NCBI GenBank assembly: GCA_964549735.1
Contig: CAZJWO010000003.1
Span: 4,829-68,828, forward strand
Direction: 5' to 3'
DNA: 64,000 nt
Source: an uncultured Fibrobacteraceae bacterium
GTDB taxonomy: Bacteria; Krumholzibacteriota; Krumholzibacteriia; LZORAL124-64-63
The translations under genes were made by a program, and so were the position numbers. Below are positions 170 to 60,925 of this stretch, piece after piece. The notes below the pieces were generated by a model. That model was not told the origin of the DNA and ran no database searches. It saw only the letters and a program-made list of their open reading frames with translations. Position 1 is the stretch's first letter. Each line of letters starts with the position of its first letter.

Positions 170-219
170 GGGAGCTGTTAAACGTCTGGTTGCTGGTTCG
201 AGTCCAACCAGGGGAGCCA
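170..219 (+). other. tRNA-like 3' fragment (T-arm GGTTCGAGTCC followed by ...CCA); no complete cloverleaf can be folded
   Basis: The canonical T-loop GG-TTCGAGT-CC is present with a 4/5-bp T-stem. Seven nucleotides plus G-CCA follow. No 5' acceptor strand complementary to this exists upstream, because the CDS ends at 169. Possible att scar. Confidence 0.35.
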
Positions 220-511
220 AATCTTTTTGCGCGGAATTCGACAGGCATATCGGTTAGCGGTGCGGCCCGGCGGCGAGAGCTTCCGGGCTTTTCGTATATG
301 CGCAGTATTGGCAACGGGTTGGGCGGATTTTGCTGGGTCGGCGGGATTCTCTAGTTTTGGAGGGAGAGTACGGGGGTCGATGGGAACCGTTAGGGGTCAC
401 GATCGGACCCCGTTGGGTGGTCGGAAAACTCTCGGTTTCTCTGTTTTACGACCCTCTCCGTTTTAGCGGTGGGGAGATGGTTGGGGCCCGATCGTAATAG
501 TCGTCACGTCG
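211..511 (+). repeat. Repeat element copy R1 (~300 bp; starts GGGGAGCCA, ends ...CTGTTTTACGACCCTCTCCGTTTTAGCGG...GTCGTAATAGTCGTCA); ~75% identical to copies at 60423 and 60734
   Basis: Alignable by eye with 60423..60733 over ~260 bp. Shared blocks include GGAATTCGAC, GCCCGG...CCGGGCTTTTCGT, GGATTCTCT, GGGGGTCG and GGACCCC. Predicted hairpins are conserved with G-U/compensatory changes. Confidence 0.75.
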
Positions 512-530
512 GTTCAAAGGCCGGCGTCGG

Positions 531-935
531 TCAGAGCGACTCGAGCACCCGCTTCAACTTCTCCCGAATCTCGCCCGCAATCTGAACGAGAGCGGGGTTG
601 TCGATCGCCTGCATCGACGAGACCGGGTCGATCGCCGAAACCTCTACCTCCGTTTCGGACAATTCCCGGAGGATGACGTTGCATGGGAGCATCGTCCCGA
701 CCCGAGGTTCGCTCTGCAGGGCCTTGTGCGCGAATGGCGGGTTGCAGGCACCAAGGATCCGGTACGGCGGGAAATCGACATCGAGCTTTTTCTTCAGGGT
801 CCCTCGTACGTCGATCTCGGTGAGAACCCCGAATCCTTCCTTGGCCAGCGCGTCTCGCGTGAGAGCCTCCGCGTCGTCGATCGACATCTTCAACTGTCGG
901 CTGATGTAGTAGCTCATCGAATCATTCCTCTCCAC
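531..935 (-). CDS. DUF302 domain protein
   Basis: 134-aa ORF. The translation (MSYYISRQL...DVRGTLKKKLDVDFPPYRILGACNP...) matches the DUF302 family. It sits in a metal-resistance gene neighbourhood. Confidence 0.75.
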   Translation of the reverse strand: MERNDSMSYYISRQLKMSIDDAEALTRDALAKEGFGVLTEIDVRGTLKKKLDVDFPPYRILGACNPPFAHKALQSEPRVGTMLPCNVILRELSETEVEVSAIDPVSSMQAIDNPALVQIAGEIREKLKRVLESL

Positions 936-953
936 TCGGAAAAAGTCCGGTCG

Positions 954-1502
954 CTAATGGTGGTGGGCATGTTCTCCATGACCGGTTTCGCCCGCCATTT
1001 CACGGTACTGGTCCGGAGTCATGGAGGGTAGGCATTTGACGAATGCCGTGAGGTTCCAAAGCGTCTCGTCGTCATGTGTCGGCCCTAAAGCGGGCATTCC
1101 GGTCATCTTGATCCCATTCTTGATTATCCAGAAGACCTCTCGGGCAGAATGGTCAGAATCCATCTCGGCGAGGTTGGGCGCCGGTGGGTTCAGCCCTAAG
1201 CCAATCTCGCTCCTCTCTAATCCCGGAGCTCCGTGACAAGCCACGCACATCGCCTGGTAGTGCTGGAAGCCCTCGTCGAGATTGGGATCGCTGAAGGACG
1301 GGCTCAATTCAATGTCCGATGCATGACGCCGCACAGAGTTGTCCATCATCGTGGAGAGGATGGACTCGGTCATGGCGTGATGCGGTTTGGTCGCGGCTAC
1401 GTTGTAAGCACCAGATCTTATGGTCACGAGGCCGACGACGGCTGCGATGCCGGCGACGACGACAAGCGTCACCACGACCGGCTTGATTGTTCCGGATTTC
1501 AT
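954..1502 (-). CDS. Membrane-anchored class I c-type cytochrome (CxxCH)
   Basis: N-terminal TM helix (IKPVVVTLVVVAGIAAVVGLV). Single CVACHG haem-binding motif. Confidence 0.7.
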   Translation of the reverse strand: MKSGTIKPVVVTLVVVAGIAAVVGLVTIRSGAYNVAATKPHHAMTESILSTMMDNSVRRHASDIELSPSFSDPNLDEGFQHYQAMCVACHGAPGLERSEIGLGLNPPAPNLAEMDSDHSAREVFWIIKNGIKMTGMPALGPTHDDETLWNLTAFVKCLPSMTPDQYREMAGETGHGEHAHHH

Positions 1503-1540
1503 CTATGGACTCCTTCTTTGCCGTAGCGGGCAACGGTAGG

Positions 1541-3937
<2,397 letters not shown>

Positions 3938-3979
3938 ATCGTGATCTTCCTTCCGGGCAATTGACGAAACCGTGCCGGG

Positions 3980-4738
3980 TCACAGTCGCAAACTGACGAT
4001 CATCGAAAAGCCCCGATCCGGACTGGATGCCGTCGTGCCCTGGGTGTAGAGCGCCAGAACTCCTGTGCGGTTTCCGAGCCTGGCACCCAAACCTGCGGAC
4101 CACTCACCGAACCCCGGGACCCCTTCGACGACCGATCCGCCACGGGCATATGATGCAACAGGATAGAAAGGAACCCCTCGGGGGCGCCAACTCGCTGAGG
4201 CCGCGACGGAGATGCGGCTATTGTATGAGACGCCGACCGGATCTCCCGGACTGAGATAGCCCAGCTCGAGGAAGAGCAGAAAATCACGGACAAGATTGGT
4301 CGTCAGAAAACTGAAACCCCAATCGAACTCACCGCTGCTCAGAGGCGAAGGCTCGTCCGCAAGCGGAATGGTGCCCTTGACCTGTGCCCACCCCCGGCTG
4401 GCAGCCTTCGGGCCGTAGGACGTCCAAAGGCTGCGCCCCAGAGTGAGGTCTATAGTGCCGGCCCCGGACTCGGTGGGCAGACCGGAGCCGGCACCCGGGT
4501 CCCATCGCCACCAACTCACGGCTCCGCGAACGCGCCATCGCGTTCCGGTCTTTCCGACGGCCGTGTAGGAGACCGTGGTTTCGTTCTCGCTGTCATAGCG
4601 ATACAAACTCAGCGTCTGGGAAGCTATGACGGCAGCGGGAACGTCGGACGGAATCATCCCTACTGCCGTGATCAGAAGGCCAACGGTCCATGCGAGCGCC
4701 TTCGGCACGCCGTTGCTACTGACTCCAGTTGACCTCAA
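3980..4738 (-). CDS. Putative outer-membrane beta-barrel protein (CopB-like or transporter-like), signal peptide present
   Basis: N-terminal signal/TM segment. Alternating hydrophobic beta-strand pattern with aromatic residues. C-terminal ...SLRL. It sits between copA and the Met-rich protein. Confidence 0.45.
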   Translation of the reverse strand: MRSTGVSSNGVPKALAWTVGLLITAVGMIPSDVPAAVIASQTLSLYRYDSENETTVSYTAVGKTGTRWRVRGAVSWWRWDPGAGSGLPTESGAGTIDLTLGRSLWTSYGPKAASRGWAQVKGTIPLADEPSPLSSGEFDWGFSFLTTNLVRDFLLFLELGYLSPGDPVGVSYNSRISVAASASWRPRGVPFYPVASYARGGSVVEGVPGFGEWSAGLGARLGNRTGVLALYTQGTTASSPDRGFSMIVSLRL

Positions 4739-5259
4739 TGATTGTGCCCTTCGTGTTCGCTGCCAGTGGACTGGCCGGTCTCGCCACGCATGGCATGCAT
4801 CGCCGTCATCAGGTTCCGGCAGGACTCGACCATCTGGTCCATGTTGGTCATGACGTCCTGCATCTCCGCATGGTGATCGCCGATGGAGGAATCACCACTT
4901 CCCAGATACTCGTGCATGCTCTTCATCATCGACTCCATGTGGGGCATCAGGTTTTCCATTCCGCCTTCCATGTCCTCCATCCAGGAGGCCATGGGACCTA
5001 CGCCCATCTGGCCTGCGTGGCCATGACTCTCCATGCCCACTTGGTCATGGAACTCGCGCATCTGCTGCATCATCTGGGACATGTGGTCCATCATGGTGTC
5101 CATGTGCTCCATCATGCCCGCGTGGTCCTCCATCATGTGCCCGCCGTGCATGTCGCCCTGGCTTCCGCCGTGATCGCCCATTCCGCCGTGCTGGGCCAGA
5201 GCAGGACCCGCGATGAGAGCCGCGGTGGCGATCATCGTACCCAACGTCTTCTTGTTCAT
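4735..5259 (-). CDS. Periplasmic Met/His-rich metal-binding protein (Cu/Ag sponge, PcoE/SilE-like composition)
   Basis: Signal peptide MNKKTLGTMIATAALIAGPALA. The mature part is extremely Met/His/Asp/Glu-rich (HGGMGDHGG, MMEDHAGMMEHMDTMMDHMSQMM, EHEGHNH). Confidence 0.7.
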   Translation of the reverse strand: MNKKTLGTMIATAALIAGPALAQHGGMGDHGGSQGDMHGGHMMEDHAGMMEHMDTMMDHMSQMMQQMREFHDQVGMESHGHAGQMGVGPMASWMEDMEGGMENLMPHMESMMKSMHEYLGSGDSSIGDHHAEMQDVMTNMDQMVESCRNLMTAMHAMRGETGQSTGSEHEGHNH

Positions 5260-5284
5260 GACAGACTCCTCGGGTTGGTTGTTT

Positions 5285-5773
5285 CTAGTGCTTCGTTTCT
5301 GCCTGCGGCACGAATTGGCCGCAGCGCAACATCTTTGACCCGTAGTACGGATTGGAGATCTCGTCGCCCGTCTGGAGCCAGTGCTTCTTGGCCATCGAGC
5401 AGTAGGCGACCTTGACGTTTCCCTCGGGGATCAGATCGTAGGAATCGACGAGGATCTCGCTGAGATCTCCGAACGCGAGGCGGGCTCCCTGAAGGTCCTT
5501 GGCACCTGCAAGAGTCCCTGCAGCCGCGGCGAGACCCGCGGTGCGACTCTTGGTCCCGGCGCAACACGCGCCCTTTTGATCATCGCCAGCGCCGGTCAGG
5601 ATTTGCTCTATCGCCATGGCGTGTTCGCCAACTTCCTCCAGCGAATCACCGGCCAGTGCCGCTTGGATCGCCAGGTAGTGTTCCGCAAGTTCTGGTGTTG
5701 CTGCCGATGCCGGTATCGAAACCAGCGATGCGGCGACGACCAGAATCCCCAGTCCCAACAGTTTCTTTTTCAT
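5285..5773 (-). CDS. Periplasmic DUF3347-like protein (copper-resistance associated)
   Basis: Signal peptide MKKKLLGLGILVVAASLVSIPASA. ~140-aa mature domain with CC pair and conserved C/M. Typical neighbour of copA/cus genes. Confidence 0.6.
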   Translation of the reverse strand: MKKKLLGLGILVVAASLVSIPASAATPELAEHYLAIQAALAGDSLEEVGEHAMAIEQILTGAGDDQKGACCAGTKSRTAGLAAAAGTLAGAKDLQGARLAFGDLSEILVDSYDLIPEGNVKVAYCSMAKKHWLQTGDEISNPYYGSKMLRCGQFVPQAETKH

Positions 5774-5890
5774 GGTTGACTCCTTTGCTTCGTAAACTCG
5801 AGTGGTTGTTTGATGAGCCTTAATGCATCATCTGTGCCACGGATAATACATTGTAATTATTGCGCTTACGTGGACGAGGTTTGGGGCGGT

Positions 5891-5934
5891 GGAGAATATT
5901 CTCCAATCCGCGGCCGGGCGGTGTAGAGAATTCT
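5891..5934. promoter_or_regulatory. Two related palindromic sites (GGAGAATATTCTCC 14-bp perfect palindrome; AGAGAATTCT) in the cop-prophage intergenic region
   Basis: Perfect dyad at 5891-5904. A related AGAATTCT dyad is ~22 bp downstream. The region lies upstream of the minus-strand DUF3347 gene start and upstream of the integrase module. Confidence 0.35.
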
Positions 5935-6092
5935 TTATTGGTCAGGTTTGGAGTCGCGCCTGCGGGGCGAGGTCCGACCATAACCGGAAGCCGGATAGGC
6001 GAGACCTGGGAATCGGATCTGATTCTAGAAACCGGCTGGGCTTGATTCGACTGACACTTCGATGGGTCCCCGGGTAGGTAAACACCAGAGGT

Positions 6093-6329
6093 GTGACCGC
6101 TACCCGGAGACGACCGATGCCCCGATCGATTACCGATGAACTGACTCCCACCCAACGCCGCAAGGAGATCGCCGCAATCCTTGGCCGCGGTCTGCACCGC
6201 CTCGACAGTGCACGCGGGAACCAGCCGGCTGCATGCGATTCCTCGCCCGGTTCCACGGGCCAGAAAGCCCTTGATGTGTCCGCGCCCGGCGACCCTCATG
6301 TGTCCCGGTTAGCTGAACCGAGATCATGA
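6093..6329 (+). CDS. Small hypothetical basic protein (possible HTH / excisionase-like)
   Basis: 78-aa ORF immediately upstream of the DUF2924-recombinase pair. Basic, ...TPTQRRKEIAAILGRGLHRL.... Weak support. Confidence 0.25.
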   Translation: MTATRRRPMPRSITDELTPTQRRKEIAAILGRGLHRLDSARGNQPAACDSSPGSTGQKALDVSAPGDPHVSRLAEPRS

Positions 6330-6342: not shown

Positions 6343-6832
6343 ATGGCATTGAACATCGGGAAAGAGATCACCGCGCTGAAGCGCATGACCGTGCCAGAAC
6401 TGAGGCGGAAGTACGCCCATGTGTTCGGTGAAGACACGACATCCCGGCACAAGGAGTACTTGATCCGCCGCATCGTCTGGCGTCTCCAGGTGAACCAGGA
6501 CGGCGGCCTGTCCGAACGAGCACGGCTGCGGGCCAGAGAACTGGCCGCTGATTCTGACGTCCGTTTGACCGCCCCGCGTCCTCGCCCGATCGCACCTGGC
6601 GGCGAGATGACCACCGCGCCCATCGAGTTCCCCCAGGACGACCGCCTGCCGATGCCCGGCGCGATCATCACGCGCCAGTACAAGAGCCAGACGGTCGCGG
6701 TGCGGGTCCTGCCGCGGGGATTCGAGTACGAGGGCGAGGTGTACCGGACCTTGAGTGCGGTGGCCAAGAAGGTCACCGGCACCCACTGGAACGGCTTCAA
6801 CTTCTTCAAGTTGGGCCGGGCAGGGGGCACCG

Positions 6833-6843
<11 letters not shown>
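6343..6843 (+). CDS. DUF2924 family protein (typical partner encoded upstream of large serine recombinases)
   Basis: 166 aa. Its stop overlaps the recombinase start (ATGGCCGGTAG). Gene pair arrangement. Confidence 0.65.
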
Positions 6844-8382
<1,539 letters not shown>

Positions 8383-8386
<4 letters not shown>

Positions 8387-22109: not shown

Positions 22110-23960
22110 TTACCCCCGCCAGCCATCGATCCACCCCCGGGGGCGTCGCACAGGCATCGACGGCTCGGACTCGGCCGCCGCCTGGACCTCTCGCTGGTGG
22201 GCCAGGGCCGCCGCTCGCTCGGGCAGAGACTTCACGAACGCGGGGCCGAGGATATAGAGGGCCGCCAGGCAATAGACCTCGAGGTCGAGGGCCTCGTTGC
22301 GGTCGCGGGTCTTGATCCACTCACGGACCGTGCCACGGTTCTTCACCCACTTGCGGATGGCCTTCTCCGCGGTCAGCTGGGCGATGTACTCTTCGTCAGT
22401 CCATTCGGGGAGGTGGCAGTAGCCGGGGCCCGGCGACCCGATGCGTAAACGCGAGTAGACGATCTCCTTGCCTGTGTCCACGCAGAGGGTGAACAGCTTC
22501 GCGCGGTACCGGTTGTGAGTAGATGGGCGACCGACCAGGGGCTTGCCTCGCTCGGAACCGCCGCGGACAGCGAACACGCGCCGGTCGATCCTGGCACGGC
22601 AGAACCGGTAGACCTGCTCGGAGTGGTGTCCGCCGCTGTCGACGGCGACGCAGGAGATCGGGACCTTCTGCCCGCTCTCGTGGGCGAACTCGGTTCGCAG
22701 GAAGCGGTCGAGGTCGAGCCAGACCTGGTCGCGCCCCGGATCACCGTGGAACTGGGAGAACGCGACGAGCCAGGACTCCTCCGACGCGCCGTATCCCTTT
22801 ACAGCGCACTCGAGCCGGTCGCCCTGGACATCGACCGAGGCTACGAGCACGCCCACGCCGTTGGGTACCTCGGCTTCGTATCGCTCCGCCCGGGCCAGCA
22901 GGCTGTCCGGGTCGACGGTCTCTCCGCGCTCCTCCCAGGTCTCTCCGAGTACGCTGTTGACCCAGTTCTTCAGCTTGAGGGGGTTCTCCTTGGCCTCCCG
23001 GAACTCGGTGACGGTGGCCGACCACGGGAGCCAGCCCAACGGCGAGTAGAGGCTGGACAGATGAAACCCGATCGTCTCGCCGGTGCCCTTGGCGGTGGGG
23101 CGCCACTGGCCGGATGCGAGCATCTGCGGCTTGAATCGTTCCTCGATCAGGACACCGCAGTTCACGCAGGCCAGAGCCGCGGTCTTGGGGTCATCGTCAC
23201 GCCACCGGATGTTCTCCCACCGCATCCAGTCGAAGTTGCCGCATTCGGGGCAGGGGACGAAGTACCGCCGCTGATCCGAGGCCAGGAATTCCCGCTCGAT
23301 CCGGGAGATGCCCTTGATCGTGGGTGTCGAGACCAGGAACACCTTGCGGCGCGAGTACAGTGGCCCAGTGGTGCGCTTCTCCGCCAGTGCGATCGGATCG
23401 CCCTGGCCGTCGACATCGCCCGGGTACTCGTCGATCTCGTCGCAGAAGAGCCAGCGGATCGGCATCGATTTGACGCCGGTCGCGGAGTTGGAGCCCGTCA
23501 GGAACAGCACGCCGCCGGGGAATTCCTTGATCAGGAGGCTGTTGCCGCCGTCTCGGGACCGCGCCTCGCGGACAAGCTCGTGCAGCACCGGCGTAGTGGC
23601 GATCATGGGATCGAGGCGCTGCCGACTGAACCGCCGGGCTTCGTCCACGGTGGGGCGCAGGACCAGGATCGGCCCAGGTGCGTGGTGCATCACGTAGCCG
23701 AGCCAGTTGTTGCCGGCCTCGGTGCCACCGAGCTGCGAGCCCTTCATGAAGACGACCCGGCGAGCCGGCGACCGCGGACCCAGGGCGTCCATGATCTCGC
23801 GCAGGTAGGGCGTCGTGTCCGTGTGCCAGTGGACAGCAGCATGGCCCGAGCGGTTGCCTAGCACGCGGTGTTCGTCGGCCCATTCGCTGACCGTCAGCCG
23901 CGGCTCCGGCCGCCATCCCGCCCGATAGGCGGCTTCGTAGACGTCACGGCCGTTCTGCAT
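22110..23960 (-). CDS. Phage terminase large subunit, GpA (lambda) family
   Basis: 616 aa. N-terminal ...LTVSEWADEHRVLGNRSGHAAVHWHTDTTPYLREIMDAL...KGSQLGGTEAGNNW... matches GpA-type terminases. Confidence 0.85.
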   Translation of the reverse strand: MQNGRDVYEAAYRAGWRPEPRLTVSEWADEHRVLGNRSGHAAVHWHTDTTPYLREIMDALGPRSPARRVVFMKGSQLGGTEAGNNWLGYVMHHAPGPILVLRPTVDEARRFSRQRLDPMIATTPVLHELVREARSRDGGNSLLIKEFPGGVLFLTGSNSATGVKSMPIRWLFCDEIDEYPGDVDGQGDPIALAEKRTTGPLYSRRKVFLVSTPTIKGISRIEREFLASDQRRYFVPCPECGNFDWMRWENIRWRDDDPKTAALACVNCGVLIEERFKPQMLASGQWRPTAKGTGETIGFHLSSLYSPLGWLPWSATVTEFREAKENPLKLKNWVNSVLGETWEERGETVDPDSLLARAERYEAEVPNGVGVLVASVDVQGDRLECAVKGYGASEESWLVAFSQFHGDPGRDQVWLDLDRFLRTEFAHESGQKVPISCVAVDSGGHHSEQVYRFCRARIDRRVFAVRGGSERGKPLVGRPSTHNRYRAKLFTLCVDTGKEIVYSRLRIGSPGPGYCHLPEWTDEEYIAQLTAEKAIRKWVKNRGTVREWIKTRDRNEALDLEVYCLAALYILGPAFVKSLPERAAALAHQREVQAAAESEPSMPVRRPRGWIDGWRG

Positions 23961-27811: not shown

Positions 27812-27871
27812 TCGAGCCGCTCCTCATGGACCGCGGTGCTATTCTGGTAAACATGGGGGTGAAGGCCCGGA

Positions 27872-28777: not shown

Positions 28778-28807
28778 TCCTGCTACCTCTTGTCGCGGCG
28801 CCTGCTG

Positions 28808-32265: not shown

Positions 32266-32286
32266 GTCAGACTCTCCGTTCTCCGA

Positions 32287-33261: not shown

Positions 33262-33262
33262 G

Positions 33263-49081: not shown

Positions 49082-51061
49082 CTACGACAGCGTCGCGCCG
49101 GTCCCCTTGACGAATGACTCGCCGCGACGGACGGCGGTGTCGGCCATCGAGTAGCTGGTGATCAGGATCTGACCGCGGGCGGCCTTCGTGACGACGTCGA
49201 CCACGATCTCGAGGTCGTTGCCCCACATGCCCACCAGCAGGTCGTTCCAGTTCCCGAAGACCAGGCCGTGCTCGTTGCTGCCGGCCCCCAGCGTCTTGGA
49301 GATCTGGTTCGTGGTGCGGGCGGGGTAGCCGCCGAGCTCGCCCTCGCGGTAGGTGCCCGACCACAGGAAGACCGGGTAGCCGCTGACCAGGGGCGTGCGC
49401 TTCAGCACGCCGGCCATCAGCGGGGTGGTCATCCAGGAGAGGGCCCCGAGGTCGGCGTTCTTGTCCGCGACCAAGGCGGGCATCGTGGTGATGTCCGTCA
49501 GGTCGGGCACGCCGCCCACAGCGTGGGACTGGACGTCGGCCGCCCCGTAGATGCCCACGGGCTGCTTGTCCGTGCCCTTGCCGTGCAGCGCGCCGAGATC
49601 CAGGGCCAGGCCGTGGCCGGTCGCCAGGTCGCTGCGGATGTCAGCCTCGACGTCGATCGAGGACATCACCAGCAGCTGCCGGGGGATCTGCACCTGGCCG
49701 ATCAGGGTCTTGGGCGAGAGGGACACGTAGCCGTACGAGGGCTCGGACTGCGGAGCGTCGCTCGGGGGGTTCTCCTCCATCCAGGACACCGTGGGAGCGC
49801 CGGTCTTCTTGTTGAAGTACACGACGCCCTGCAGGCCGGGATAAAGCTTCGCGCCCGAGACCAGCACCAGGGCCCGGTTGCGCAGCAGGTCGATCATGTC
49901 GGGCATGATCTGCTGGCCGACCAGGGTCGCGCCGCCGCTCTGCTGGGTGGTGCCCAGGACGCGCTGCTGGTCGTCGTCGCTCAGTCGCCACGGCACCAGT
50001 ACGCCGCCGTGGTCAGCGCCGGTGCGGTGCTTGGACAGCTCCTCGTGGACCTCGGCCTCCAGGCCGTCGTACCGGCTGCGTTTGCCGTCCATCAGCTCGG
50101 CCTGCAGGCGGATCGCGCGGTGGATGGAGTAGCGCTTCTTGTCCCGGGCCGGCATCTCGGCCAGCGCCTCGGCCGAGGGCTGGGCGGGCCCCTGGGTGCG
50201 GAGGGCTCCCAGGATCTCGCGTGAGACCTGGTCCGGCGTCAGGCCCTTCCTGATCCAGCCGGCGGCTTTGTCGGTCACACCGTGGGCCTGGGCCATCTCC
50301 ATGATCTCGGCTGCTTCCGCGCCGCGATCCCGGGTCTCGACCACCTTGGGTGCCGGCGCAGGCGCCGCCGGCGCTTCTCGGGTCTCGGTGCCCGAGGCGG
50401 GCCGTTCGACCGCGGCGGGCGGGGTTCCTGCTTCGACACTCATGGTTCGTTCTCCTTCGGTAACGGGCTCTTCGATCGTGAATTCGACCAGGTCGACCTC
50501 GGGAGCGCCGCGTGTGCGCCCGAAGCCGACCTCGTGGTCGGCGGGAATGGGTTCGGTGGAGACCTCGTAGGGCATCCAGCGGCAGCGGTAGGTCGCGAGG
50601 CCCGACTTCTTGTCCTTCGAGACCATCTCCATCGAGAGGACCTGGTAGCCCACCGAGACGGTCTTGATGTGCCCCTCGCGGAGCATCGTCTCCTGCTCCT
50701 GGCCCAGTGGGATCGACGAGAAGCTGGCCAGGCCGCGGAGGCGGCCGCGCTTCGCGTCGAGCTCGATGTCGTTCACCGAGCCGAAGTGCAGGAGGCGCTG
50801 GTGGGACTTGATCAGCGGCAGGCCGTTCTTGGCCCGGCTGAGGTCGACGTCGCGGGCCTCGTGGGACAGGACCTCGTCGTACTCCTCCCAGGTGTCCCAG
50901 GAGTAGCGGCGGACGGGGGCCTCGCTGGAGAAGGACACCGGGTAGAGCCGGATCTGACCCTCGCCGCCGTCGGCGCGGGTTTCGACCTCGACCTCGAAGT
51001 CCCGGTACTGGATGCGCGGCACCTTCACGGTTCGCGTTTTGATGGCAGTCGGTGTGTCCAT
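49082..51061 (-). CDS. HK97-family prohead protease fused to HK97-fold major capsid protein
   Basis: N-terminal protease-like ~200 aa, then an Ala/Pro/Glu linker, then an MCP-like C-terminal ~330 aa. Confidence 0.75.
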   Translation of the reverse strand: MDTPTAIKTRTVKVPRIQYRDFEVEVETRADGGEGQIRLYPVSFSSEAPVRRYSWDTWEEYDEVLSHEARDVDLSRAKNGLPLIKSHQRLLHFGSVNDIELDAKRGRLRGLASFSSIPLGQEQETMLREGHIKTVSVGYQVLSMEMVSKDKKSGLATYRCRWMPYEVSTEPIPADHEVGFGRTRGAPEVDLVEFTIEEPVTEGERTMSVEAGTPPAAVERPASGTETREAPAAPAPAPKVVETRDRGAEAAEIMEMAQAHGVTDKAAGWIRKGLTPDQVSREILGALRTQGPAQPSAEALAEMPARDKKRYSIHRAIRLQAELMDGKRSRYDGLEAEVHEELSKHRTGADHGGVLVPWRLSDDDQQRVLGTTQQSGGATLVGQQIMPDMIDLLRNRALVLVSGAKLYPGLQGVVYFNKKTGAPTVSWMEENPPSDAPQSEPSYGYVSLSPKTLIGQVQIPRQLLVMSSIDVEADIRSDLATGHGLALDLGALHGKGTDKQPVGIYGAADVQSHAVGGVPDLTDITTMPALVADKNADLGALSWMTTPLMAGVLKRTPLVSGYPVFLWSGTYREGELGGYPARTTNQISKTLGAGSNEHGLVFGNWNDLLVGMWGNDLEIVVDVVTKAARGQILITSYSMADTAVRRGESFVKGTGATLS

Positions 51062-51090
51062 GCACCCAGTAGTGATGCATCCGCGAAAGG

Positions 51091-51123
51091 CCGACCAATC
51101 TAAATGTCATTTAGATTGGTCGG
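51091..51123. promoter_or_regulatory. Perfect 33-bp palindrome CCGACCAATCTAAATG-T-CATTTAGATTGGTCGG between divergent capsid and portal-side genes
   Basis: Seen directly. 16-bp perfect arms. Confidence 0.6.
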
Positions 51124-51151
51124 CTCGTTAGCGCGGTGTCACCGTGGGCGC

Positions 51152-51709
51152 ATGGCACAGGAACTCGCATACCTCCCCGATCAGTTCGCGGCCGGGACCA
51201 CCGTCTGCTATCGCAGGCGGCTGACGGATTACCCTGCATCCGCCGGTTGGACGCTCCAGGTCCACCTGGCCGGCGCGAGCGTGCTCGCCAAGACGGCCGC
51301 CGCCGATGGCGACGACTTCATCGTCACGATCGAGGCCACGGACACCGAGGCCGACTTCGCCGCCGGGCTGTACAAGTGGGTCGAGCGGGTCTCGAACGCG
51401 GGCGGCGAGGTCTACGAGGTGGGCCGCGGCTCCGTCACGATCCTGCCCAACCTGGCCGAGGCCTCCGAGGGCAGCGAGCAGGAGTGGATCGAGAGGGCGA
51501 TCGCCATGCTGCGGGCCCACATCGAGGGCCGGCTGCCGGCCGGCATGGAGAGCTACCAGATCGCCGGGCGTGTGGTGGCGAAGATGCCGATCCGGGAGGC
51601 TGTCAGCCTCCTGTCCAGCCTCGAGTCCCGCCTGGCTGGTCTGCAGAAGCCGGGATTCGTCACCCGACCCGTGCTCGTGTCGTTCACCAAGCCCGGGTTC
51701 GAGCGATGA
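51152..51709 (+). CDS. Phage protein upstream of portal
   Basis: Start MAQELAYLPDQ. Stop overlaps the portal start (ATGA). Confidence 0.45.
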   Translation: MAQELAYLPDQFAAGTTVCYRRRLTDYPASAGWTLQVHLAGASVLAKTAAADGDDFIVTIEATDTEADFAAGLYKWVERVSNAGGEVYEVGRGSVTILPNLAEASEGSEQEWIERAIAMLRAHIEGRLPAGMESYQIAGRVVAKMPIREAVSLLSSLESRLAGLQKPGFVTRPVLVSFTKPGFER

Positions 51710-53238
51710 AGCGGCCGCTGCACAAGCGTCTCGGGCGGGCGGTCCGACTCGCCTGGCGCGAACTCCGCGGCCAGCGAGGCGTGTTCGACGGGGCGGGAGT
51801 CCACCGGTTGCTCCTGGACTGGATCGCCCAGACCCGGTCTGCGGACGAAGAAGTCCGCGGCGACATCCGCATGCTGCGGGCCCGCGCCCGCGAGCTCGGC
51901 CGCAACAACAGCTACGTCAAACGCTACTTCCGCCTGCTGGTGAACAACGTGATCGGGCCCATGGGGATCAAGCTGCAGGCCCAGGTCTGGGCCGGGGAAC
52001 AGCCCGACTCCAAGGCCAACGCCGCGATCGAAGAGGCGTGGAACGCCTGGGCCAATGCTCCGGTGACGGTCGACGGTCGGCTCACGCTGCGCCGATTCGA
52101 GAAGGTGATCCTCAAGACCATGGCCTGCGACGGCGAGGCCTTCGTCCGTCTGTGGCGGGGGTTCGAGGGCAACGCCCATGGCCTGGCCCTGCAGGCGATC
52201 GATGCCGACCTGATCGACGAGACTCTCAACCGCCCTCGTCGCGGAACGCAGAACGAGATCCGTATGGGCGTGGAGATCGACGCCATCGGGAGGGCGGTCG
52301 GATTCTGGGTGTGGGATTCGGTCGGCACGGACCTGTTGCGCGAGCGGTACTTCGTCCCGGCCGCGGAAATGCTCCACCTCTACGACCCCGAGCGCGTGAA
52401 CCAGACCAGGGGCGTGACGTGGGTGCACTCGGTCATGGTGCCGGCGCACATGCTGAACGCCTACGAGGAGTCGGAGGCGGTCGCGGCCAGGATCGGGGCC
52501 TCGAAGATGGGGCTGTTCGAGAAGCGAAGCGATTCGCTGGCCGGCGACCTGGCCAGCGATCCCAAGCCCGCGACCATGGAGGCCAACCCCGGGACGTTCG
52601 AGATTGTCCCCGATGGCTACGAGTTCAAGGCCTGGGAGCCGGATCACCCGACGGCTCAGTTCCCGGCGTTCATCAAGCAGATGCTCCGGAAGATCGCCTC
52701 CGGGTTCAGCGTCTTCTACAACGTCCTGGCCAACGACGCCGAGGGCGTCAGCTACTCCACGATGCGGAGCTTTGCCTTGGTGGAGCGCGACGATTGGCGC
52801 TCCATCCAGCAGGACTTCATCGACATGTGGCGGCGGCCGCTGTACGCGGCCTGGCTCGGCATGGCGCTGCTGACTGGCAGCCTGAAGCTCGGCTCCCGCG
52901 ATCCCTCCCGCTACATGGCGGTCCGACACCGTCCTCGGGGTTGGCAGTGGATCGATCCCGAGAAAGAGGCGAAGGCCGCCGTGCTCTCGATTCAGAACGG
53001 CCTGGGGACGAGGACCGGGTTCCTGGCGGAGAAGGGCGAGGACATCGAGGACGTCTTTGCCGAGTTGGCCCGGGAGCAGGATCTGGCCAAGGAGTACGGG
53101 TTGTCGATCTCCGGGGCAACAGCGGCGACGAGCGAGCCGGCGGAGGATCAACCCAAGGACGCCGAGGGTGACGAGGAAGAGATTGACGAGGACCAGGCCG
53201 AAGTCGAAGACGAGGAAACGGAGTCGGCGACTCGATGA
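51706..53238 (+). CDS. Phage portal protein, lambda (gpB) family, with acidic C-terminus
   Basis: ...NNSYVKRYFRLLVNNVIGPMGIKLQ.... C-terminal DEEEIDEDQAEVEDEE. Confidence 0.8.
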   Translation: MKRPLHKRLGRAVRLAWRELRGQRGVFDGAGVHRLLLDWIAQTRSADEEVRGDIRMLRARARELGRNNSYVKRYFRLLVNNVIGPMGIKLQAQVWAGEQPDSKANAAIEEAWNAWANAPVTVDGRLTLRRFEKVILKTMACDGEAFVRLWRGFEGNAHGLALQAIDADLIDETLNRPRRGTQNEIRMGVEIDAIGRAVGFWVWDSVGTDLLRERYFVPAAEMLHLYDPERVNQTRGVTWVHSVMVPAHMLNAYEESEAVAARIGASKMGLFEKRSDSLAGDLASDPKPATMEANPGTFEIVPDGYEFKAWEPDHPTAQFPAFIKQMLRKIASGFSVFYNVLANDAEGVSYSTMRSFALVERDDWRSIQQDFIDMWRRPLYAAWLGMALLTGSLKLGSRDPSRYMAVRHRPRGWQWIDPEKEAKAAVLSIQNGLGTRTGFLAEKGEDIEDVFAELAREQDLAKEYGLSISGATAATSEPAEDQPKDAEGDEEEIDEDQAEVEDEETESATR

Positions 53239-55454: not shown

Positions 55455-55640
55455 TCAATACCATGCAATGCTGCTAGGCATTTAGGGGGCGGGCGGCACT
55501 GCACGATGTCGGAGGATCGCACGCCACGCAGGCGTCGACCTGCACGTGCCGTGTATTCTGTTTTAATATAATCAGTTACAAAACATTTTGCCGAAAATGA
55601 GACTACGCTAGGACGGCATAAATTAGGCGAAAAAAAACTT

Positions 55641-55680
55641 GTGAATGCACCAGAATGGTGTAAAGTGGTGCACCCTAGGA
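55641..55680. promoter_or_regulatory. Clustered short palindromes (GCACCA-gaa-TGGTG; GGTGCACC) upstream of the RHH gene (C-box-like operator)
   Basis: Seen in the AT-rich region immediately 5' of the RHH/MTase operon. Confidence 0.35.
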
Positions 55681-55687
55681 GGGTGCT

Positions 55688-55900
55688 ATGGCGAGAAAGA
55701 GAAAGCGGCCTGATCCAGGCATGTCCCGCGCGTCCGTGAGCTTACCTGTGGAAGACTACGCGGAGATCGAGCGTATAGCACAGCAGAACCGCGTGTCTAT
55801 CGCATGGGTGATCCGAGAGGCAGTCACTCAGTACCTAGCGGAGAGGAGTCCGCTTTTTCGCGCCTCCGAGATTGCTCGCACACACCAAGGCGGCCAATAG
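55688..55900 (+). CDS. Ribbon-helix-helix (CopG/Arc-type) small DNA-binding protein, possible R-M controller
   Basis: ...RASVSLPVEDYAEIERIAQQNRVSIAWVIREAVTQYL... = RHH. Confidence 0.55.
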   Translation: MARKRKRPDPGMSRASVSLPVEDYAEIERIAQQNRVSIAWVIREAVTQYLAERSPLFRASEIARTHQGGQ

Positions 55901-58130
55901 GGCAGGCCGTATCCTGCAGATTTTGGATTCAAGCAAGGGAGTGCCTTCAAGAATGGGCCCAGGAACGACACTAAGTGCAGCTACCGAAACCCGGGCTCGC
56001 CATATCAGGCGTGCGGTTTTGCTACTGCAGCGAGGCCTGAAAGACCAAGCCATTGCCAAGTCGTTCAAGAGTCAATTCGGACCACGGTGGCAGTCGTCTA
56101 TCCAGGTTGATGTCGACATACCTAGTCGAGCCGCGTGGGCGTTGGTCACGAGTCGAATCGTAGGCCGGCTGACTGGGGGGCTTGGTTGCACTGCAAACCT
56201 CCAAGACACCGAAGCCTGGTTCTTGGGTCCGTTGGCGGGCCATGTAGATTCTCTTGCAAGGCAAATCTCGGCGTCGACAGATAAGTTTGTCTGCGAGGAG
56301 ATGGAGCGAATCCGATTCGACCAGGAGTTATCGGACCTGCTGCCCTATGTGTTGGAAATACACGGTCCCGGCAGTCGGGCGAGTGTCATGCGTGACCCGA
56401 GTACTCGAGTTGCCCGAGACACGAAACGTACTAATGGAGTTTTCTACACGCCGCCAGATGTAGCGAAATACATGGCGAGGGTGGCTCTGAACGGGCCGTC
56501 CTTTCGCAACCAGGGTTCGCGCTGCCTAGACCCGGCCTGTGGGACGGGCGTCTTCCTTCGCGCGGTGTTGAATGATAGTTCGGTCAAGCAGAAGGAGTCT
56601 TTCCAGTTTGCGTTGGACTCCCTTTTCGGAATCGATATTTCTCCGCATGCAGTTGAATCTGCATGCTTCGTTCTACTCCACGACTTGCTTCAGCGATGCA
56701 GGCCCATGCAAGTAGATCCGTGGTCTGTGTGGCATGCACTCAGACTTAATTTTGCCGTAGCTGATTCGACCGAGCTCGTGCCGCCATCTGGCGATCAATC
56801 TAGGTCTGCTGATGTCAGAAAAGAGGTTCAGCAAGAGCTCATCCAGGGGAAAGCTCTTCATGCGGCAGAGGGTGGTCCAGACACCTTGAACCTTGATCGT
56901 GGTTCGTCTCTCTTCAATGGAACTCGAAGACTAGATGGGCTCTTTCCTGACGTATTCGAGGGCTTCGATGTACTCATCTGCAATCCGCCGTATGCTCAAA
57001 TTGCGCGTAGGGGTTCTGTCGATAGTTCGTTCCCAGAATACGAGTGCCTGCGTTCTGGTGTGGGCCCATCTGGCAATCTGTATCCGCTCTTCATTGAGAT
57101 GACTTGGCGTTTCACGCGTCCAACGCACTCGTCTTCGGCGCTCGTTGTTCCCCTGTCAATCGCCTACCATCGCGGGCGGCAGTTTGTAGAGTGTCGAAAA
57201 GCTATGGTGAATAAAGGCGGCGCGTGGAAGTTCGCGTTTTTCGATCGTGAACCTCATGCTCTATTTGGAGAGGACGTAAAGACCCGCAACGCTATCATCT
57301 TCCGAAATGAACGATCTGGGGACAGACCGCGAGGGGACTCATCTGCGGTATACAGTGGGCCTCTGCGGAGATGGACAAGCAGAACTCGGCAAGAACTCTT
57401 TGAATCCATTGATTTCACCCGACTGCCTACTTCCGACATTGGGGAAGGGATACCCAAAATCGGGGGAGAGGAGCAAACAAGAACTCTCGGGGTTCTGAGG
57501 GGCCTCTCCCAGCGCTTGCGTACTAGTTGGGTGACGGCTGGCTCCTGTCTGCCAGAAGAAACTTTTTGTGAGCAATTCGAGCCAGTCGTCTATGTCGCCG
57601 GGACAGCGTATAACTTCTTGAATGTCTTCAGGCCCCAGGCTACGAGAACCTGTGGCGATCGGGTTATGAGCCAAAGTCGCGTGGCTCGCCTACAGTTCTC
57701 TGATGAGAATGATGCGTCGGCCGTATTCGCGATTCTAAGTAGCCGATTCGTGTTTTGGATGTGGCACGTTTATGGCGACGGTTTTCATGTGCCGCGGTGG
57801 TTTTTAGAGGGAATTCCCTTCGACAGGACTAGCTTTACGTCCCAACAGCGAAGACAATTGTCTGGGCTGGGCACGGTACTTTGGAAGGAGCTTCAGCACC
57901 ACACTGTTGTAAGTGTGAATGGTGGTCGTACGACGATCGCCTATCGCCCACTCGCCTGCGATTCGATTCGAGCCAAGATCGACAGGGTTCTGATTGAGGC
58001 CGCGGGCGTCGATATTTCGTTTCAAGAGCATCTTGGTCGCTTCATTCGCGACGTAGTTGTCGTTGATGAGGCCGATGAACGCCGGGCATCGCTTTGGCCA
58101 GGTCTTTCCCGGCAGGAGGCCGCAACATGA
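55872..58130 (+). CDS. N6-adenine DNA methyltransferase, gamma-class (FxGxG then NPPY), Eco57I/TaqI-like with large C-terminal TRD
   Basis: GVFYTPPDVAKYM; LDPACGTGVFL; DVLICNPPYAQ. Alternative start at 55953. Confidence 0.8.
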   Translation: MLAHTKAANRAGRILQILDSSKGVPSRMGPGTTLSAATETRARHIRRAVLLLQRGLKDQAIAKSFKSQFGPRWQSSIQVDVDIPSRAAWALVTSRIVGRLTGGLGCTANLQDTEAWFLGPLAGHVDSLARQISASTDKFVCEEMERIRFDQELSDLLPYVLEIHGPGSRASVMRDPSTRVARDTKRTNGVFYTPPDVAKYMARVALNGPSFRNQGSRCLDPACGTGVFLRAVLNDSSVKQKESFQFALDSLFGIDISPHAVESACFVLLHDLLQRCRPMQVDPWSVWHALRLNFAVADSTELVPPSGDQSRSADVRKEVQQELIQGKALHAAEGGPDTLNLDRGSSLFNGTRRLDGLFPDVFEGFDVLICNPPYAQIARRGSVDSSFPEYECLRSGVGPSGNLYPLFIEMTWRFTRPTHSSSALVVPLSIAYHRGRQFVECRKAMVNKGGAWKFAFFDREPHALFGEDVKTRNAIIFRNERSGDRPRGDSSAVYSGPLRRWTSRTRQELFESIDFTRLPTSDIGEGIPKIGGEEQTRTLGVLRGLSQRLRTSWVTAGSCLPEETFCEQFEPVVYVAGTAYNFLNVFRPQATRTCGDRVMSQSRVARLQFSDENDASAVFAILSSRFVFWMWHVYGDGFHVPRWFLEGIPFDRTSFTSQQRRQLSGLGTVLWKELQHHTVVSVNGGRTTIAYRPLACDSIRAKIDRVLIEAAGVDISFQEHLGRFIRDVVVVDEADERRASLWPGLSRQEAAT

Positions 58131-58990
58131 CCGTAAAAACGAGCGTGGACATTAAGGAAAAGAGCAAGGTCACCAAAGAAGAGTGGCGGGAGTTTACTAA
58201 GACGGTTTGGCACATTGCCAACACAAGCCATGAGAAACACCCCGCTGTTTTTCCTCGGGAGATCCCGCATCGATTGGTGAAGATGTTCACTTTTTACGGT
58301 GAGACCGTCCTTGATCCTTTTGCTGGGACGGGTACGACGGCAGCAGCGGCGATTCCATTGGGGCGGCGTGCGGTTTGTGTCGATCAAAGCCAGAAGTACA
58401 TCAAGATCATTGAGAGTGAGTGTGGGGGGCTGCGCAATGGGCATCCCGAAGATGAGAAGCCGCTGATGGCCGTGCGGGCAGACAGCCGCAAGCTGCAGTT
58501 CATCGAAGACGATTCCATTGGCCTTGTGGTGACCAGCCCTCCGTACTGGAACAAGGCCGACTATGGGAAGGGGCGAGCCAATCTCGGCAACATTCCGAGC
58601 TATGTTCGCTTCATCGAAGAAACTCGGCCCGTTTTTGAGGAGTGCTATCGAGTTCTCAGGCCCGGCAGGAAGATCTGCCTCGTAACCGCGAACGTTAACC
58701 AACACACTGATCATGGACTCCTGACGTTCCCCCTCGCGACGGATTTCGGCGTACTACTGCGCGACATCGGCTTTGTGATGATCAACGAGATCATCTGGTC
58801 GAAGGACGGAACGGGCGGAAAGTGGGGGTCCTATGGCCAGCAGCGGCCGATTTTTGGGAGCTACCCGTACCCTCCCAACTTCCTATTCAAGAATGTACAC
58901 GAGTATGTTCTTATTTTCGCGAAGCCCAACGGAAAGAAGGTTCGCGGTCCCAAGGCGCTGCCCTATGATCAGATCATGGAACGCGAATGA
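58094..58990 (+). CDS. Second SAM-dependent DNA methyltransferase (motifs DPFAGTGTT and SPPY)
   Basis: VLDPFAGTGTTAAAA...LVVTSPPYWNKADY...LRPGRKICL. Confidence 0.7.
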   Translation: MARSFPAGGRNMTVKTSVDIKEKSKVTKEEWREFTKTVWHIANTSHEKHPAVFPREIPHRLVKMFTFYGETVLDPFAGTGTTAAAAIPLGRRAVCVDQSQKYIKIIESECGGLRNGHPEDEKPLMAVRADSRKLQFIEDDSIGLVVTSPPYWNKADYGKGRANLGNIPSYVRFIEETRPVFEECYRVLRPGRKICLVTANVNQHTDHGLLTFPLATDFGVLLRDIGFVMINEIIWSKDGTGGKWGSYGQQRPIFGSYPYPPNFLFKNVHEYVLIFAKPNGKKVRGPKALPYDQIMERE

Positions 58991-59002
58991 TCGACAGTGC
59001 GA

Positions 59003-60169
59003 TCAAATAAACCTGTACCAGGTTGAATGGTCCGGATCACTTGGCTTTGTCAGTACAGTCTGCGTTGGTGTTGCATTGATCCCGTCTTCTAGAGATTCGA
59101 GGATCGCTTTGCCTTGTGGTGAATCGCCGTCATAAGCATAGTACCGGATCCCGTCTACAGACCGTTCAAGACGAATCACGGGAACCGCCATCCCTCTTGT
59201 TTCGGGTATCTCGAGTTTGTACGTGTTGACCTGGCCGCCGGCACGTTCTGGATGAGTTGCGCTAATAGCACGTCGCTGATCATCATGAGAGCTCGTAACT
59301 GCGTCTTCTCCCGTAAAAAAGGCACAGTTTCTCAAGGGAATCGGTATCTGAATCTGGGTCCCACGCGCTGGGCGGACCCGCATAATCAATACGTTCGTGA
59401 TAGTAACCGGGTCATTGCCCCGAGTCGACAGTGTTCCTGAGACAGTGGGGCGTGCAGTCCTACTGCTAGGTTCTTCGTCCTCGGCACGCCCGGTGGCGCG
59501 GCCTTCGGGTGGAGCTGGGGCGGGAACAACCTTCGATTGGAACAAGCGCGTTCGTCGCCGGCCACCGGTGGTTCCTCGGGTTGTAGTGCGACTCGAAATT
59601 CTACGGCGAGAAAGTTCTCGCTCGCTAAAAATATAGCCCTCGTTTTGAAGCTCTTGAAGCAGCGCGTTATCGAGGATTCGCGCCAAGCCGTTCTCGACGT
59701 CAGCCCAGCTGTCAATCGCGGCGAGCGCATCCAAAACCAGGTCGTCGTTTGAACCAAGATCGATCTGAAGACTTGCTTCGGTATTCGTAAAGAGACCTGG
59801 CTCGGTAATGTTGTTGGAGCCGACGATTAGGCGCGCGTCATTATCCGCACGGAGAAGGTAGAGTTTCGGGTGAAAGGTAGGACTTGCTTCGTTGTGGCAA
59901 ATGGTGGTCCGGCAGTCTCCGAGTTGTTCAAGTGACAGCAAATCGGATAGTCCTTCAACCGACGTGTTTTCAATGTCAATGCCCACCCCGAAGCGAACGC
60001 GGCCCCCGGATTGAACAAAGCCACGAAGGGCAGGGAGTAGGTGCCTAGTTCCTGACCGTCTGACCCAGGCGACAGCTACATCAAGGGAGTTCCAATGGCC
60101 GCTCGAAATGAATTCAATTAGCGCCGTACCAAGTCTATGCGTAGAAGCTTGATTATACAGAATGGCCAT
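59003..60169 (-). CDS. Phospholipase-D (HKD) family restriction endonuclease (NgoFVII/BfiI-like)
   Basis: FHPKLYLLRADNDARLIVGSNNIT (HxK...D...GSxN HKD motif). Convergent with the two MTases. Lowest GC in the window. Confidence 0.6.
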   Translation of the reverse strand: MAILYNQASTHRLGTALIEFISSGHWNSLDVAVAWVRRSGTRHLLPALRGFVQSGGRVRFGVGIDIENTSVEGLSDLLSLEQLGDCRTTICHNEASPTFHPKLYLLRADNDARLIVGSNNITEPGLFTNTEASLQIDLGSNDDLVLDALAAIDSWADVENGLARILDNALLQELQNEGYIFSERELSRRRISSRTTTRGTTGGRRRTRLFQSKVVPAPAPPEGRATGRAEDEEPSSRTARPTVSGTLSTRGNDPVTITNVLIMRVRPARGTQIQIPIPLRNCAFFTGEDAVTSSHDDQRRAISATHPERAGGQVNTYKLEIPETRGMAVPVIRLERSVDGIRYYAYDGDSPQGKAILESLEDGINATPTQTVLTKPSDPDHSTWYRFI

Positions 60170-60422
60170 ACGGACTCCTCATCCTTGGTCTTGGGCTGGT
60201 CTCCTCGTTCCTCAGCTATGTCGGAGAGTCTATTGATGAGATGCTAGCAGAATCGCCCCGTGGAGTCACTCTTCGGATTCTCGCTTGTGCAATGCCGCGG
60301 AGCGTGGATGCGGCGTGCCGATAAGTCGTGAATACCCAGAGAGATACTTTGATCTGGACTGGTGGGTCGTTGCGCACTATCTTGTGGTCGGTCTCCGGAA
60401 GAGTTCGATGTGCGTTACGTCC

Positions 60423-60733
60423 GGGGAGCCAATCCTTTTTCAGCGGAATTCGACATACCTTCCGGTTAACGACGCGGCCCGGGGCGAGAGCTCTCGGGCT
60501 TTTCGTTTATTCCCAAGTCTGGCAACGGATTGCGCGGTTCTGGGGGGTGGGGGCGGATTCTCTGGTTCGCGGGTGAGAGTTTGGGGGTCGGTGGGAACAG
60601 TCAGGGTTCACGTTTGGACCCCGGTCGGTGGTAGAAAAACTCTCTCCGTCTCCGTTTTACAACCCCCTCAAATTTAACGCATGGGAGTGGAGCGATTGCC
60701 GGTCGTAACCGTCAAGAAGACGGGGGGAGCCAC
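60423..60733 (+). repeat. Repeat element copy R2 (full length, starts GGGGAGCCA)
   Basis: ~75% identity to 211..511 across ~260 bp. Ends with GTCGTAACCGTCA. Confidence 0.75.
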
Positions 60734-60925
60734 CTCGCTGCTGTGCCGAACCAGCCGAAAACTCCTTCACGCAAATTCTCGACACGAAGAGCCGGATGCG
60801 GGAATGCCGCACGTCCGGATCTGTGGGGGGCGGGGGAGGTGACTTCCCTGGCCTACCTGACTGTTTTACGACCCTCTCGGGTTTAGCGGTTGATGGCCGC
60901 GTGACAACCAGTCGTAACCGTCAGT
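60734..60925 (+). repeat. Repeat element copy R3 (truncated, internally deleted; starts GGGGGGAGCCA, retains ATTCTCGACAC, CTGTTTTACGACCCTCTCGGGTTTAGCGG and GTCGTAACCGTCA blocks)
   Basis: Direct tandem to R2. Confidence 0.6.

Follow-up and report, generated by a model that had tools for sequence, protein, structure and literature searches.

A conserved non-coding unit at both ends of a 60-kb prophage is probably an attachment-site module of serine-integrase phages stacked at a tRNA-Asn gene

The window analysed here was the whole stretch of 64,000 nucleotides from an uncultured Krumholzibacteriota bacterium (GenBank assembly GCA_964549735.1, contig CAZJWO010000003.1), in which copies of a conserved non-coding unit of ~300 bp bracketed a 60-kb accessory region. 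We consider it probable (at roughly 0.8) that this unit was the P'-side terminal module of the phage attachment site (attP) in temperate phages and integrative elements of Krumholzibacteriota-like bacteria that encode a large serine recombinase (LSR) and integrate into the tRNA-Asn(GTT) gene at its 3' end. The copies of the unit marked phage junctions stacked at one tRNA-Asn gene, and copy 1 was the left junction (attL) of a prophage of ~60 kb whose cargo included genes for metal efflux and restriction-modification. The first-pass annotation of the window had taken the repeats for boundary markers of an accessory region, which was borne out, but it could not assign them to any known class of element. 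They can now be placed among recombination-site modules: GGGGAGCCA at the start of the unit was the 3' end of tRNA-Asn(GTT), that is, the 3' strand of the acceptor, the discriminator base and CCA, and the P' half-site came next. Rather than a new mobile element or a gene resembling transfer-messenger RNA (tmRNA), the repeat was largely explained as a module of the attachment site at which serine-integrase prophages had inserted in tandem, with tRNA-Asn as their hotspot.

Three states of the same site were recovered from the sequence contexts of LSR homologues and of a host gene. They came from one Krumholzibacteria species (L057, L026/L047 and L025/L055), the flanking sigma-54 activator gene being 100% identical. 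In the empty bacterial site (attB) of L057, the tRNA-Asn gene ended in ...GGAGGAGCCA and was followed by GCGCTTTTCC (also written as ...CCGGAGGAGCCA followed by GCGCTTTTCCCAGGG), and the unit was absent. The phage site was located in a 51,972-bp IMG/VR viral contig (L026, the same as L047), where ...GGGTTCGAATGCTGTTACGTTTGGGGAGCCA was joined to ATCC... and the unit was present; the layout of this junction was ...TCGA...GTTACGTTT, then GGGGAGCCA, then the unit. In the integrated form (attL, L025/L055), ...GGAGGAGCCA of the tRNA-Asn was joined to ATCC..., and both the unit and the phage were identical to those of the viral contig. Because the empty site lacked the unit while the viral contig and the integrated form had it, the unit was phage-borne and was absent from the empty tRNA-Asn site of the same species, where the native trailer of the host was unrelated to it. 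The phage and host sites had only the 7-bp core GGAGCCA in common and the junctions fell exactly there, placing the recombination within GGAGCCA. Moreover, L004, a locus from a different sample, matched copy 1 and its cargo without any difference on the right-hand side of GGGGAGCCA, whereas on the left-hand side a phage arm took the place of the tRNA fragment. Since the identity ended at GGGGAGCCA, the recombination joint was exactly at this 9-mer. A host contig from the sample of the viral contig (L058) ended inside the unit, as expected if free or tandem phage existed there alongside the integrated form.

When viral, genome and metagenome collections were scanned for patterns, 20 loci were obtained, and those with a taxonomic label belonged mostly to metagenome-assembled genomes (MAGs) of Krumholzibacteriia or Latescibacterota. 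A first pattern scan of viral sequences produced no match, and an arm-core pattern scan of viral contigs produced 21 matches (18 by chance), with only L039, L047 and L048 being relevant. The unit was found in three contexts. At ~10 loci, it directly followed an intact tRNA-Asn at a fixed distance. At copy 2, L004, L006, L010, L015 and L016, it followed an arm of the form ...TCGA(N9-10)GTTACGT(TT or CC) that was joined to GGGGAGCCA. Elsewhere it came after tRNA-Asn fragments of other lengths. There were two sequence types, A (like copy 1) and B (like copy 2). Type A was always followed by a cargo of DUF302, cytochrome c and CopA genes, and the unit with this cargo was located after the tRNA in L009 and L020 and after the phage arm in L004 and L006. 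A miniature inverted-repeat transposable element (MITE) or the end of an insertion sequence (IS) was rejected, as the copies were all direct and occurred solely at tRNA-Asn or phage-arm junctions.

The LSR was the sole recombinase found in the element when 40 open reading frames (ORFs) of the window were scanned against Pfam, and we infer that it would carry out the exchange. In at least 10 independent loci (L012, L015, L016, L019, L022, L025-27, L029 and L032), the LSR and DUF2924 genes were found downstream of the unit at a distance of 0.8-6 kb, and the cargo in between was variable. Homologues of the LSR at E below 1e-50 numbered in the thousands, and exact-protein look-ups of the window's own LSR and CopA ATPase gave no match. 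For every junction, the geometry was measured as the spacing between TCGA and the C in the centre of GAG[C]CA. At phage-arm junctions, the left TCGA was 24 nt from the centre in all cases (8/8) and the right one in six of eight, and attP-type sites were ~50 bp long with inverted outer TCGA motifs. At tRNA junctions, the left TCGA of the T-loop was 19 nt from the centre without exception (10/10). The attL of the window combined both distances, with the T-loop TCGA at 198-201 (19 nt) and the P' TCGA at 238-241 (24 nt). In serine-integrase sites, the motif of the zinc-ribbon domain was reported to be 5 bp nearer the centre in attB than in attP (PMC3783163). The shift of TCGA from 24 to 19 nt would, by analogy, fit this rule for the left half of the site only.

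The TCGA within GGAATTCGAC of the unit mirrored that of the phage arm, and since the TCGA distances fit the geometry rule of serine integrases, GGAATTCGAC was most simply the outer motif of the P' half-site. It was not invariant, being GGAATAAGAC in L005 and absent from L028 and L032. The ~25 nt after GGGGAGCCA appear to behave as the P' half-site of a serine-integrase attP. In the proposed mechanism, the LSR would take TTCGA of the tRNA T-loop as the outer motif of the left half-site of attB, and the TCGA of the arm together with GGAATTCGA of the unit would serve as the outer motifs of attP. Once integrated, the phage would contribute the final bases of the tRNA as well as a trailer and an intrinsic terminator. 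The hairpin of copy 1 at 263-295 was intrinsic-terminator-like and would end tRNA-Asn transcripts. The first ~85 nt of the unit can be explained as half-site, tRNA trailer and terminator.

Homology among related elements started sharply at an imperfect palindrome at 6066-6110, the beginning of the backbone. Because it was intact in integrated copies, this palindrome was rejected as the true attP and was probably an operator or regulatory site. It recurred at ~64.39 kb, just past the window (L002 13380-13409).

Copy 2 was best read as the left end of a second, related element integrated in tandem, because its junction was attP-like and because L002, from the same sample, contained the backbone palindrome of that element ~3.4 kb past the remnant called copy 3, beyond the window. 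The junction was considered attP-like rather than a right junction (attR) since TCGA was present at both -24 and +24, and it was best read as an intact internal attP. The same junction of arm, core and P' was present in the ~52-kb viral contig L026/L047. The earlier statement that the repeats were not a recent duplication of an att site also held, as the two copies did not stem from one integration event. The cargo of the second element included a protein sorted by the type IX secretion system (T9SS), like that of L016. A comparable pair of units was found around a smaller serine recombinase in L029/L030, so that this attachment site appears to be shared by a second lineage of recombinases. 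Namely, at L029/L030 1-3558 two divergent units flanked a 3-kb segment with a nucleotidyltransferase/HEPN pair and a 431-aa serine recombinase, and this segment was located upstream of a DUF2924-LSR element.

A number of observations weighed against the attachment-site interpretation. Only three of the four att sites were found; a canonical attR, in which the phage arm would be joined to the native host flank, was not among them, and a search for it through the type III restriction enzyme of the phage gave unrelated homologues only. The native right half-site in L057 was without TCGA at about +16-19, and the right-hand TCGA was missing from the divergent units of L028 and L032. The tandem P-P' junction was not predicted by strict LSR directionality (attP x attB only) and would need co-integrate integration, homologous recombination or relaxed specificity; in addition, the window stopped short of the recombinase of the second element. 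Finally, an LSR needs only ~25 bp of the unit, and the model left ~265 further conserved nt unexplained.

It is possible, though we regard it as unlikely, that these ~265 nt past the half-site correspond to an undescribed structured phage RNA that would be switched on by integration behind tRNA-Asn. The unit would then be a functional phage RNA transcribed from the host tRNA-Asn promoter in lysogens only, possibly a small RNA derived from the tRNA 3' trailer, or a read-through product in which four CUCUC motifs could pair with ribosome-binding sites. If this was true, the CUCUC motifs would act on host or phage mRNAs (e.g., by such pairing) or in the control of lysogeny. In line with this possibility, no sigma-70-like promoter was found in either copy. 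A sigma-54 promoter at TGGCAACGGATTGC was rejected, as the motif was not conserved in type A or divergent units; its spacing was one base short of the sigma-54 consensus. Coding capacity was rejected as well, since no frame was open in all homologues and single-base indels occurred at six alignment columns, which also speaks for an RNA product.

The conserved part was studied in two alignments: A2 with 19 sequences (83% mean column identity) and A3, to which four divergent units found via the recombinase were added (79%). Columns ~195-221 of A2 were fixed by the search pattern, while the divergent units in A3 were free of that bias. Units L028, L029, L032, L039 and L048 had the same architecture despite their divergence, namely the T-run, GGTTAAC, the terminator, a TCTCT...AGAGA hairpin, a GC-rich hairpin, and AAAACTCTC...TCTCTG (as RNA, AAAACUCUC...UCUCUG). 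The fact that this architecture was kept in units too diverged for sequence search argues for the RNA, as does the covariation of the terminator and one hairpin. RNAalifold gave -52.7 kcal/mol for the + strand versus -31.6 kcal/mol for the - strand. In A3, the terminator hairpin (helix 2) and the helix at columns 165-203 (helix 4) each had three pairs changed on both sides, and slid controls were far lower in covariation. Overall, 7/30 pairs were changed on both sides and the observed values were reached by 0-1 of 500 shuffles, with the sequences falling into few clades and most pairs being invariant. The covariation was therefore suggestive only, since relatedness within few clades could produce it without structural constraint. 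Helices that paired the tRNA 3' end with downstream sequence (helices 1-2 of A2) were discounted as biologically implausible.

The first-pass annotation had described hairpins preserved through compensatory differences and had proposed a structured RNA or protein-recognised element. The hairpin GCCCGG...CCGGGC with its T-run was real and terminator-like, while the supposed GGGGTC...GACCCC hairpin was better described as GGGGGUCGRU...AYCGGACCCC (372-411 and 60583-60622). Some hairpins were indeed kept through compensatory differences, but covariation was confined to the terminator and one hairpin, where relatedness could yield it. The unit was conserved as claimed, but with such weak covariation its RNA nature was not established.

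The phage RNA was further disfavoured by the position of the terminator only ~50-85 nt past the tRNA, as the downstream 210 nt would rely on read-through. Moreover, most paired positions never varied, the weak covariation could reflect relatedness alone, and proteins might just as well bind the repeated TCTCTGTTT and CTCTC motifs at the DNA level. Besides four CT-rich repeats (TTCTCTGGTTT, AACTCTC, ATCTCTGTTT and CCCTCTC), the unit contained one GAGAG as a possible pairing partner for each of the four. The repeats were located at A3 columns ~138-148, 219-224, 228-238 and 244-250 (copy 1 ~348-358, 429-434, 438-448 and 454-460) and were the most conserved part of the unit, divergent homologues included. 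These repeats could provide alternative RNA pairings or direct-repeat sites for protein binding. Our best guess for the ~210 nt after the terminator was either a phage-encoded RNA or a set of protein-binding sites. An Rfam search had been suggested as a way to a known RNA family, but Rfam 15 gave no meaningful match for copies 1 and 2, even at E<=10; in the related loci, only tRNA and group II intron matches were found.

A host-encoded structured non-coding RNA (ncRNA) gene that naturally follows tRNA-Asn, with the copies being host paralogues or host DNA carried in islands, was largely refuted by the comparison of L057 with L025 and L026, and we find it very improbable. In favour of such a gene, the unit came at a fixed distance after intact tRNA-Asn in ~10 MAG loci; however, L057 of the same species had tRNA-Asn without the unit, in L003 and L060 an intact tRNA-Asn was followed by unrelated sequence, and the tRNA-adjacent units were always followed by phage or cargo genes where enough downstream sequence existed. 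The mean column identity of 79-83% and the better + strand fold with some compensatory pairs are also compatible with a host RNA, but an identical unit was found behind the phage arm in the viral contig, and Rfam gave no match. Least credible was a tyrosine-integrase element, a classical island that targets a tRNA and has long att arms, with the repeats as its arm-type binding regions. In its favour, tRNA 3' ends are the classical targets of that class, a 46-nt tRNA piece that starts in the anticodon loop, as at 174-219, is typical of it, and an excisionase-type helix-turn-helix (HTH) gene was located near the arm in L016. However, no tyrosine recombinase (Phage_integrase domain) was found in any scanned window ORF, the fragment was accounted for by a separate AAA_14 mini-island, and the symmetric TCGA at ±24 with the 5-bp shift fit serine integrases instead.

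The attachment-site module can be compared with several known systems. The attP and attB sites of serine integrases have been defined for Listeria A118/LI, Bxb1 and phiC31 (Rutherford et al. 2013, PMC3783163). The sites described here were similar to them in the short common core, the ~50-bp dyad-symmetric phage site, the inward shift of the motif by 5 bp in the bacterial site (seen for its left half), and the presence of the LSR in the element, with cargo between attP and the recombinase gene. They differed in targeting a tRNA gene at its 3' end, with an outer motif that would be provided by the T-loop. In addition, ~265 nt of conserved non-coding sequence lay past the half-site, tandem arrays contained an internal attP, and the native B' half-site had no clear motif. 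The serine integrase of phiRv1 targets the REP13E12 repeat family of M. tuberculosis. Like the elements described here, phiRv1 is a serine-integrase prophage with its attachment site in a repeated non-coding element, but REP13E12 is a multi-copy host repeat, whereas here the repeat was carried by the phage and its copy number was that of integrated elements. Tandem polylysogens of lambda are another case of tandem integration. Tandem accretion of integrative elements at tRNA genes was described for the tycheposon islands of Prochlorococcus (bioRxiv 10.1101/2020.12.28.424599). As in those islands, elements were located side by side behind one tRNA gene with partial tRNA copies between them, newcomers pushed older elements away from the tRNA, and degraded remnants piled up. 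In contrast, tycheposon-type accretion involves mostly tyrosine recombinases and its repeats are partial tRNAs only, whereas here each element added a ~300-bp module.

The resulting map of the region started with an intact tRNA-Asn upstream, followed by a small ATPase island, the 60-kb prophage, and a second stacked element (Table 1). The likely attP, attB and attL were defined for a widespread LSR family of uncultivated hosts that uses the tRNA T-loop as part of its target. This LSR/att system is directly testable and may be of some use for the development of integrase tools. Beside attP, these phages retained a non-coding stretch of ~265 nt that was conserved and probably structured.

Table 1. 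Positions of the features discussed in the text, numbered from the first letter of the window.
Feature	Position	Strand	Basis or remark
tRNA-Asn(GTT) 3' fragment, 46 nt, anticodon loop to CCA	174..219	+	BLAST to tRNA-Asn 3' halves
attL of prophage 1	198..241	+	centre C217 of GAG[C]CA
Unit copy 1, type A (terminal module on the P' side of prophage 1)	211..514	+	alignment, profile search
Terminator-like hairpin GCCCGG...CCGGGC, then TTTTCGT, copy 1	263..295	+	read from sequence
Conserved hairpin GGGGGUCGAU...AUCGGACCCC, variable apical part	372..411	+	RNAalifold; three pairs changed on both sides (helix 4)
Imperfect palindrome TCCCCGGGTAGGTAAACACCAGAGGTGTGACCGCTACCCGGAGA	6066..6110	+	followed by a small ORF, DUF2924 and the recombinase
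DUF2924 gene, always paired with the LSR gene	6343..6843	+	Pfam, related loci
Large serine recombinase (LSR)	6833..8386	+	Pfam domains Resolvase, Recombinase, Zn_ribbon_recom
attP-like junction (P arm, core, P' half-site)	60405..60453	+	centre C60429, TCGA at -24 and +24
Unit copy 2, type B (left end of next element)	60423..60721	+	alignment, profile search
Terminator-like hairpin, copy 2 (homologous site)	60476..60510	+	terminator scan
Third GGGGAGCCA	60724..60732	+	status uncertain: chance or relic of unit start
Group II intron domain V/VI remnant	60787..60861	+	Rfam RF00029, 45.7 bits (gathering score 40)
Duplicated unit tail, 66 nt (profile positions 231-296)	60861..60926	+	alignment, motif count, profile search

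Copies 1 and 2 were co-linear, in direct orientation and 74-80% identical by block in the alignment, in agreement with the ~75% estimated initially. A profile built from 19 homologues detected two full copies and one fragment in the window, with no other match on either strand. The tail motif GTTTTACGACCCTCTC had three occurrences in the window versus 0.25 expected by chance. The 9-mer GGGGAGCCA was unremarkable alone (3 found versus 1.0 expected, with at least 3 in 13 of 100 shuffles).

At the right end, the 1.6 tandem copies proposed earlier were really one full copy and debris, mostly a remnant of a group II intron. The start of the third unit had been placed at 60734, and the third GGGGAGCCA was actually 10 positions away from there. 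This start may be a chance occurrence, because the 9-mer was not conserved in the equivalent sequence of L011; there was also no TCGA at the expected distance. The so-called copy 3 consisted of the 9-mer, ~54 nt of unrelated sequence, the intron remnant and then the last 66 nt of the unit, with the duplicated tail starting exactly at the 3' end of the intron. The intron sequence was considered a remnant since it had domains V/VI only, and neither a 5' part (domains I-IV) nor a reverse transcriptase gene was found for it. The same order was present in L011, namely a full unit, a degenerate homologue of the intron remnant and the duplicated tail (L011 2467-2533). Because this order was common to the window and L011, it was considered inherited debris. 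Judging from these sequences, a group II intron would once have homed into the unit just before TGTTTTACGACC. Copy 3 would then be old debris, in which the intron entered the unit and a deletion would leave the 3' end of the intron and the tail of the unit. Another candidate, an ORF-less mini group II intron extending through copy 2 to 60861 (GTGCG at 60410), was dropped, as copy 2 was complete and intron-free elsewhere.

At the left end, BLAST of copy 1 with its left flank gave matches solely to tRNA-Asn 3' halves, and BLAST of the unit against plasmid and phage collections found nothing beyond the tRNA part. L003, which came from the same sample and extended leftward, contained, in this order, tRNA-Asn (truncated on its 5' side, where the contig stopped), an AAA_14/DUF4143 gene, the 46-nt fragment and copy 1. 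The fragment was displaced by an AAA_14/DUF4143 mini-island from the intact tRNA-Asn located ~1.4 kb upstream of the window. This ATPase mini-island was itself ~1.4 kb long and without an integrase (L003 2235-3395, L060 9053-10213), and in both genomes it had an intact tRNA-Asn on one side and, on the other, a displaced tRNA-Asn fragment that began in the anticodon loop. ARAGORN found no complete tRNA and no tmRNA in the window (0 genes).

A superficial resemblance of the 5' end of the unit to tmRNA had been pointed out. As in tmRNA (permuted two-piece forms included), the unit began with GGGG... followed by a GGAAUUCGAC-like motif beside a T-arm-like sequence. This resemblance turned out to be spurious, the GGGG belonging to the tRNA-Asn 3' end. 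Both standard and permuted tmRNA were rejected because ARAGORN found 0 genes and Rfam no tmRNA family even at E<=10. The unit also differed from tmRNA in lacking a complementary acceptor strand and a tag frame, and the motif was variable among homologues.

According to the Pfam scans, the region between the copies was a siphovirus-like prophage. It had replication genes (DUF3799, AAA_24, helicase, primase-polymerase), structural and packaging genes (terminase gpA, tape measure, tail, protease-capsid, portal) and lysis genes (endolysin, holin). The cargo at its left end consisted of DUF302, cytochrome c and a CopA-type ATPase (531-3937). Two cation diffusion facilitator (CDF) transporters and a CzcCBA-like resistance-nodulation-division (RND) pump were located amid the structural genes (27206-34654). 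Altogether, the stretches of heavy-metal resistance cargo covered 531-5773 and 27206-34654 of the window, and RND pumps were unusual cargo for a phage. The block at 55.7-60.2 kb encoded a ribbon-helix-helix (RHH) protein, two DNA methyltransferases and a phospholipase D (PLD)-like nuclease, and its GC content (55600-60200) was 54% versus ~65% across the rest of the element. Related phages had other defence cargo at the same spot beside the arm, such as the type III restriction-modification (R-M) system in L026. The portal gene (+ strand) was divergent from the adjoining protease-capsid gene (- strand) at 49082-53238, and the large terminase was located 27 kb away on the - strand (22110-23960). 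This order of the portal, capsid and terminase genes suggested an internal inversion or rearrangement of the prophage.

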